From the NCBI RefSeq assembly GCF_003018115.1, contig NZ_CP027457.1: 64,000 nt of DNA; one strand, written 5' to 3'. This DNA is from Escherichia coli (GTDB lineage: Bacteria > Pseudomonadota > Gammaproteobacteria > Enterobacterales > Enterobacteriaceae). The translations under genes and the position numbers were made by a program. This document shows positions 23,177-23,500 of the stretch, one piece after another. The notes beneath the pieces are model-generated. The model saw nothing but the letters and a program-made list of their open reading frames with translations. It was not told where the DNA came from and did no database searches. Every line of letters begins with the position of its first letter. The stretch's first letter is position 1.

Positions 23177-23500
23177 TTGCGTCAGGCAAGGCTGTTATTG
23201 CCGGATGCGGCGTGAACGCCTTATCCGACCTACACAGCACTGAACTCGTAGGCCTGATAAGACGCGCAAGCGTCGCATCAGGCAATGCTGTTATTGTCGG
23301 ATGCGGCATGAACGCCTTATCCGACCTACACAGCACCGAACTCGTAGGCCTGATAAGACGCGGCAGCGTCGCATCAGGCAATGCTGTTATTGTCGGATGC
23401 GGCGTGAGCGCCTTATCCGACCTACACACAGCACTGAACTCGTAGGCCTGATAAGACACAACAGCGTCGCATCAGGCGCTGCGGTGTATACCTGATGCGT
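23177..23500. repeat. BIME/REP cluster (three tandem copies of alternating REP palindromes)
   Basis: Repeated units GCCGGATGCGGCGTGAACGCCTTATCCGACCTACA and GTAGGCCTGATAAGACGCG..AGCGTCGCATCAGGC read directly; intergenic between pepA and holC. Confidence 0.85.

Follow-up and report, generated by a model that had tools for sequence, protein, structure and literature searches.

The stretch of DNA analysed here, referred to as the window, comprises 64,000 nucleotides of Escherichia coli contig NZ_CP027457.1, and an array of REP elements occupies its pepA-holC junction. Gene positions were taken from the list of open reading frames (ORFs) and from the RefSeq annotation of a matching strain, E. coli F8111-1SC3, which is 100% identical over 22600-24100. 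The junction, with the spacer defined from the ORF and annotation coordinates, is laid out as follows:

21665-23176, + strand: pepA
23177-23529, no strand assigned: pepA-holC intergenic spacer, 353 bp, holding the whole array
23530-23973, + strand: holC
23973-26828, + strand: valS

The annotated neighbours of the array are lptF, lptG, pepA, holC and valS, the last of which is an essential gene, and nearly all of 5,426 complete E. coli genomes match the 1.5 kb around the array at 95-100% identity. By both the ORF list and the annotation, the array is wholly extragenic, lying between the pepA stop codon (23176) and the holC start codon (23530). Because pepA, holC and valS are all encoded on the + strand, the junction is co-directional, and an earlier description of it as convergent does not hold. 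Consensus scans of the spacer (23177-23529) returned no intrinsic-terminator-like site on either strand and no sigma-70 consensus match, and inspection of the sequence found no T-run after any REP hairpin of the array; with neither a T-run nor a match in the scan, a Rho-independent terminator in the spacer was rejected as a candidate. Upstream, within the pepA coding sequence itself, an antisense Rfam match to Ysr276 (Yersinia sRNA 276; 180 bits) lies at 22223-22417 on the minus strand, and probably reflects how well pepA is conserved, not a separate RNA gene.

A repeat search resolved a 96-nt unit in three in-register copies (23179-23274, 23275-23370 and 23371-23466), and Tandem Repeats Finder reported a period of 96, 3.1 copies and 93% matches over 23182-23477, with a score (504) that makes this by far the top-scoring tandem repeat of the window. 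Gapped pairwise identities between the units are 92.7%, 89.8% and 91.8%, and a 2-nt insertion lengthens unit 3 to 98 nt. The period of 96 and the unit identities of 90-93% bear out the sequence-only reading, made from the letters of the window before the present analysis, which had described three near-identical REP-pair units between pepA and holC. Each unit consists of a Y-type REP on the + strand, a tail-to-tail linker, a Z2-type REP on the - strand and a head-to-head linker, such that the REPs run Y, Z2, Y, Z2, Y, Z2 along the array and form six hairpins of alternating orientation. In the order in which they occur, the features of the array are:

23179-23468, no strand assigned: BIME-2 array of three head-to-tail units of 96, 96 and 98 bp (repeat search, Tandem Repeats Finder and unit alignment)
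23179-23274: unit 1, 96 bp
23275-23370: unit 2, 96 bp
23371-23468: unit 3, 98 bp
23179-23188, - strand: partial Z2-type REP head GCGTCAGGCA, 10 nt, just past the pepA stop codon, repeating the unit boundary GCRTCAGGC
23200-23233, + strand: Y-type REP 1, 34/35 to the Y consensus, ending in CTAC; hairpin of -15.3 kcal/mol (+ strand RNA) with a C.A mismatch at its foot
23234-23247, no strand assigned: tail-to-tail linker ACAGCACTGAACTC, 14 nt, recurring at 23330-23343 and, with 2 additional nt, at 23426-23441
23248-23284, - strand: Z2-type REP 1, 36/37 to the Z2 consensus, with GTAG on the + strand; hairpin of -21.9 kcal/mol
23285-23295, no strand assigned: short head-to-head linker ATGCTGTTATT, 11 nt, with an identical copy at 23381-23391
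23296-23329, + strand: Y-type REP 2, 32/35, with a T-A foot pair versus C-G in the Y consensus
23344-23380, - strand: Z2-type REP 2, 36/37
23392-23425, + strand: Y-type REP 3, 32/35
23442-23478, - strand: Z2-type REP 3, 33/37, with the loop region ACAACAG as in the single K-12 unit
23466-23499, + strand: terminal hairpin, in which the head of Z2 REP 3 pairs with a truncated REP head ACCTGATGCG, -16.5 kcal/mol, with no T-run

The Y and Z2 consensus sequences used for this scoring follow the Gilson/Bachellier nomenclature. Identity alone does not discriminate between Z1 and Z2, as Z1 approximates Z2 with a shorter loop, and class was therefore decided by element length; the Z2 REPs of the array are full-length, at about 37 nt. 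The tail-to-tail linker (14-16 nt) follows the pattern ACAGCAC(T/C)GAACTC. The six REP tail motifs alternate strictly in strand (+,-,+,-,+,-) and all equal CTTATCMGRCCTAC with no mismatch, and the CTAC/GTAG foot is kept in all six elements. Each of the six folds into an imperfect hairpin with an internal loop or mismatch, spanning -15.3 to -21.9 kcal/mol as + strand RNA, and the minimum free energy of the whole spacer (-164 kcal/mol) lies well below that of shuffled sequences (-114 ± 6 kcal/mol; z = -8.6). The Y REPs here end in CCGAC (CCGACCTAC) versus CCGGC in the consensus (CCGGCCTAC); in Y REPs 2 and 3 a matching change on the opposite side of the stem (GTCGG) restores a T-A pair and keeps the hairpin, and the C.A mismatch is retained in Y REP 1 and in the K-12 copy. 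At the downstream edge, the truncated REP head lies at about 23488-23497, and the equivalent of the terminal hairpin is present in K-12 too. The flanking partial REP heads are predicted to pair with one another (23179-23188 with 23488-23499), which would close the whole array in RNA.

REP elements also occur at other junctions of the window. The tail motif, searched with up to 2 mismatches, gave 14 matches in the window compared to a mean of 0.91 and a maximum of 4 in dinucleotide-preserving shuffles (n = 100), none of which reached 14. Six of the 14 fall within 23220-23455 in the pepA-holC spacer, and the remainder lie at 19098; 37217 and 37256; 47192 and 47220; 50428 and 50498; and 56699. 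The elements to which these belong are:

19075-19111, + strand: single Z2-type REP, 36/37 (motif at 19098), between the convergent pair yjgR (+) and lptG (-)
37201-37290: Z1 REP (+, about 37201-37230) and Y REP (-, about 37256-37290), tail to tail, between ridA (+) and mgtA (-)
47171-47256: one Y (+)/Z2 (-) unit followed by a truncated REP head, between nrdD and nrdG (both +)
50409-50511: partial Y head, then Z2 REP (-) and Y REP (+) head to head, between yjgA (+) and mpl (-)
56678-56712, + strand: single Y REP, 33/35, separating the minus-strand genes ytfQ and ytfR, downstream of the former and upstream of the latter

The consensus scan that the sequence-only reading had proposed as a check thus returns the 14 matches against 0.91 expected, with Y elements scoring 32-34/35 and Z2 elements 33-36/37, and tail-motif matches occur at each of the junctions after yjgR, ridA, nrdD and yjgA where further REPs had been placed. 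A REP said to follow ytfR is indeed present (56678-56712), but it follows that gene in + coordinates only and is actually downstream of ytfQ. The ridA-mgtA Z1/Y pair is separated by a 25-nt A+T-rich linker and is BIME-1-like. An A+T-rich motif, CTGCAAT(A/T)(C/T)ATTG(G/A)ATTT, is common to that linker (37231-37255) and to the sequence beside the yjgR Z2 REP (19112-19160), and is similar to the long linker of BIME-1 that carries the IHF site; the copy beside yjgR has the appearance of a decayed BIME-1. A truncated REP head of ~10-12 nt accompanies every BIME-2 element in the window, either at its end or ahead of it, and is also seen at nrdD-nrdG (47260-47275) and yjgA-mpl (50409-50420).

Several features of the window unrelated to REPs were recorded in passing. 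On the minus strand, yjgL (30461-32251) contains an 18-bp unit repeated 10.5 times in tandem at 31490-31678 (94% matches), which is in frame and encodes the hexapeptide LNN(L/I)Q(K/E) in YjgL; this is likely a variable-number repeat in a protein of unknown function. Between the nan genes and tRNA-Leu (16127-16208), the RefSeq annotation of the matching strain places a cluster of broken genes at 11605-15434, comprising a truncated sialate O-acetylesterase, an HNH endonuclease fragment and a frameshifted phosphorothioated-DNA-binding restriction endonuclease, and the cluster looks like the remnant of a tRNA-associated island. Upstream of mgtA, a Mg2+ riboswitch (Rfam RF01056, 125.8 bits) lies at 40139-40254 on the minus strand with the mgtL leader peptide alongside, as expected.

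The repeat at the pepA-holC junction is a three-unit array of the type-2 bacterial interspersed mosaic element (BIME-2), an ordinary E. coli element. BIME-2 elements consist of y and z2 REPs in inverse orientation, joined by a short linker and present as tandem copies in strain-variable number, whereas BIME-1 elements are single copies (PMC3333891). All six palindromes align with Y and Z2 REPs, and the unit is dispersed rather than confined to pepA-holC: its REP sequences are found at a median of at least 36 places per E. coli genome. The element is moreover already known at this very locus, as the K-12 copy is tabulated as 'BIMEs2 ... <holC-<pepA' (PMC6379681 supplementary table). With Y plus inverted Z2 units and a K-12 copy published as BIME-2, the earlier view of the array as ordinary for E. 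coli is upheld.

The number of units at the junction differs between strains. We surveyed 59 chromosomes, picked at regular intervals from the ranked list of 5,464 matching records, and scored the allele of each by the length of its matched stretch:

Three units: matched stretch 1501-1503 bp, 27/59 chromosomes (46%)
Two units: matched stretch 1402-1406 bp, 12/59 chromosomes (20%)
One unit: matched stretch 1307-1309 bp, 5/59 chromosomes (8%)
Different spacer: matched stretch 1281 bp, 15/59 chromosomes (25%)

Alleles with more than three units were absent from the 59 sampled chromosomes, a sample that a rare one could escape. K-12 MG1655 has a 159-bp pepA-holC spacer with a single unit, and within the sample all K-12 derivatives carry one unit and all O157:H7 strains three; since strains of one lineage share their unit number, the locus is polymorphic but not hypermutable. 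When spacers were aligned by eye, the K-12 unit proved to take its Y REP and tail linker from unit 1 and its Z2 REP from unit 3, and the two-unit allele (L005) to be a hybrid of units 1 and 2 followed by unit 3. On these alignments, the one- and two-unit alleles are in-register recombinants of the units seen here. Such shorter alleles fit unequal recombination or slippage between units and, equally, strand exchange catalysed by TnpAREP, the REP-associated tyrosine transposase (RAYT), and unit number may change by any of these routes. TnpAREP cleaves and recombines BIMEs in vitro, for which the GTAG foot and a stem mismatch are needed (PMC3333891); both are present in the array, and tnpAREP lies outside the window.

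In 1,405 of 5,425 genomes (26%), the junction instead holds a 133-bp spacer with no REP and a G+C-rich palindrome, CCCTCTCCCTAAGGGAGAGGG, represented here by E. coli strain 266917_2 (L004:578-710, equivalent to 23177-23529 of the window). Alignment between the BIME and alternative alleles resumes only ~30 nt ahead of the holC start codon. The first ~55 nt of the alternative spacer are found again at a median of 4 places in each genome, in intergenic positions such as beside phnD, and the spacer therefore belongs to a second dispersed intergenic repeat family, which may be BoxC-like; its palindrome has no match in the 64-kb window with up to 3 mismatches. The BIME and palindrome alleles thus place two distinct dispersed repeat families at the same junction in different lineages.

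On the pepA transcript, the stable hairpins may block 3'-to-5' exonucleases and so stabilise pepA mRNA, and could attenuate read-through into holC-valS without acting as an intrinsic terminator, possibly aided by Rho. An effect on pepA translation is unlikely, because REP effects on translation of the upstream gene are reported for distances of ~15 nt or less and the first full REP hairpin starts ~25 nt past the pepA stop codon. The proposed RNA role draws on REP325, which stabilises the upstream mRNA and attenuates transcription into the downstream gene, and on a genome-wide bias of expression towards the upstream gene in REP-containing tandem gene pairs (bioRxiv 10.64898/2026.03.23.713779). 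The same study describes REP effects as variable and context-dependent, finds no genome-wide gain in half-life with terminal REPs, and makes no mention of pepA or holC (bioRxiv 10.64898/2026.03.23.713779); a literature search for holC, pepA and REP together returned nothing relevant. On the DNA, the Y REPs would constitute a strong gyrase site independent of transcription. Gyrase cleavage is enriched in BIME-2, mostly at Y REPs, and rises rather than falls when transcription is blocked (PMC6379681), and the K-12 holC-pepA BIME-2 itself contains two cleavage sites with ciprofloxacin, one with rifampicin plus ciprofloxacin, none with microcin B17 and two with oxolinic acid (PMC6379681 supplement). 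Cleavage in vivo is documented for this one-unit K-12 allele, and may extend to the three-unit allele. With ~26% of genomes lacking a REP at the junction and the others carrying one to three units, neither a given unit number nor the BIME itself is required. Taken as a whole, the locus is, with high confidence, best explained by a three-unit BIME-2 in the pepA 3' untranslated region, directly ahead of holC-valS, that would provide a gyrase site, has an RNA role proposed by analogy, and is probably close to neutral in its unit number.

The alternative that survives best holds that the array is a purely selfish or neutral repeat, seeded and amplified at a permissive site by TnpAREP or slippage, with no effect on pepA, holC, valS or topology. 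The variation from one to three units and the different repeat in a quarter of genomes would fit such an origin, as would the in vitro activity of TnpAREP on BIMEs and their strain-variable copy number (PMC3333891), and the reported context-dependence of REP effects (bioRxiv 10.64898/2026.03.23.713779) is compatible with it. Gyrase cleavage in the K-12 copy (PMC6379681) is nevertheless documented, and hairpins of -15 to -22 kcal/mol in a putatively transcribed 3' untranslated region would hardly be inert to exonucleases. In addition, the two-sided change in Y REPs 2 and 3 (C-G to T-A) preserves the stem, and the alternative allele also places a G+C-rich palindrome at the junction, which suggests that some stem-loop is retained. 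We therefore regard an entirely inert repeat as possible but rather unlikely.

At the opposite extreme, unit number (0-3) might serve as a heritable, lineage-specific dial, with the palindrome of the 26% allele as a selected, functional stem-loop substitute. If so, strains with more units would have a more stable pepA mRNA and a larger number of gyrase sites, and read-through into holC and valS, genes of replication and translation, would be more strongly attenuated. We consider this improbable.

A further possibility is that the array encodes naRNA4-like nucleoid-associated RNAs that bind HU and condense the chromosome. The naRNA4 family was defined from REP325, a BIME-2 between yjdM and yjdN (PMC4550694), and three matches to its Rfam model exceed the gathering score of 59.5, two of them within the array:

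23251-23326, - strand: RF02564 (naRNA4), 82.2 bits, spanning Z2 REP 1, the short linker and Y REP 2
23347-23422, - strand: RF02564 (naRNA4), 77.9 bits, spanning Z2 REP 2, the short linker and Y REP 3
50431-50508, - strand: RF02564 (naRNA4), 86.2 bits, in the yjgA-mpl element

These scores, and the like make-up of the source element REP325 (PMC4550694), are what an naRNA4 locus would be expected to display. However, any BIME-2 matches RF02564, as the third match at 50431-50508 illustrates, and the model in practice recognises BIME-2 units. The matches within the array lie on the minus strand, antisense to pepA, and the consensus scan found no promoter-like site there. Furthermore, REP325/naRNA4 produced no measurable nucleoid compaction, and REP-REP contacts were not seen, in a recent study whose authors include one of the describers of naRNA4 (bioRxiv 10.64898/2026.03.23.713779). 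An naRNA4-like function for the pepA-holC array is accordingly very unlikely.

The array also generates ORFs long enough to be mistaken for a small protein-coding gene: one of 99 codons on the minus strand, and others of 77 and 64 codons on the plus strand.

23160-23459, - strand: spurious 99-aa ORF with a GTG start, whose product is a 32-residue repeat

These frames are open because the repeat period of 96 nt is a whole number of codons (32); on the minus strand the frame runs uninterrupted across the three units, and on the plus strand the 2-nt insertion of unit 3 brings the frames to an end. No Pfam cut-off was reached by their products (best E = 0.015; 15.9 bits versus a cut-off of 34.8, and 15.8 versus 25), none of the three occurs in ~15 billion proteins by exact look-up, RefSeq annotates no CDS there, and the ORFs are shortened or lost where a strain has two units, one or none. 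On the Pfam and protein-collection negatives, a protein-coding reading of the 99-, 77- and 64-aa ORFs was rejected and retains only a negligible probability; the 99-aa minus-strand ORF exists, and is spurious, as the sequence-only reading had stated. That reading had also warned of a superficial likeness to CRISPR, which is real insofar as palindromic repeats of about 35 nt recur at regular spacing, but a CRISPR or CRISPR-like array is excluded by its anatomy and neighbouring genes: two kinds of repeat alternate in orientation, what would be the 'spacers' are linkers of 11 nt and 14-16 nt that recur from unit to unit, the 41.5 kb of annotation around the array (whose neighbours are pepA and holC) contains no cas genes, and the REP sequences are dispersed through the genome.

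With the junction read as a three-unit BIME-2, the result is mainly a negative one, and masking of the region as a BIME-2 array is advisable, to keep the 99-, 77- and 64-aa ORFs out of gene calls and to prevent repeat finders from reporting it as CRISPR-like. The pepA-holC junction also offers, ahead of holC-valS, alleles with no BIME and with one, two or three units, a natural series in which the recently proposed role of REPs as stabiliser and attenuator could be tested without engineering.

Comparison with known systems places the array among them as follows. CRISPR arrays resemble it in their short palindromic repeats and regular spacing, and differ in that the pepA-holC array has no unique spacers and its repeats alternate. 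BIME-1/RIP elements, in which Y and Z1 REPs flank a long linker with an IHF site, belong to the same REP superfamily and are represented in the window by the pair after ridA; in contrast, the pepA-holC array has Z2 rather than Z1 REPs, linkers of 11 and 14-16 nt, no IHF-site linker, and a tandem arrangement. REP325/naRNA4 is closer, with the same Y/Z2 make-up, a position between co-directional genes, and Rfam matches over the gathering score, although the matches at pepA-holC are antisense to pepA and a like role for the array is proposed by analogy. Differences from BIME-2 itself are of no substance: there are three units here versus one in K-12, and the Y REPs depart from the consensus at their ends, with two of the three compensating across the stem. 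Alternating Y and Z2 REPs, tandem units, an extragenic site and strain-variable number are common to both. The linkers of the array, described here by their length, are short (11 nt head-to-head and 14-16 nt tail-to-tail) and conserved between units.
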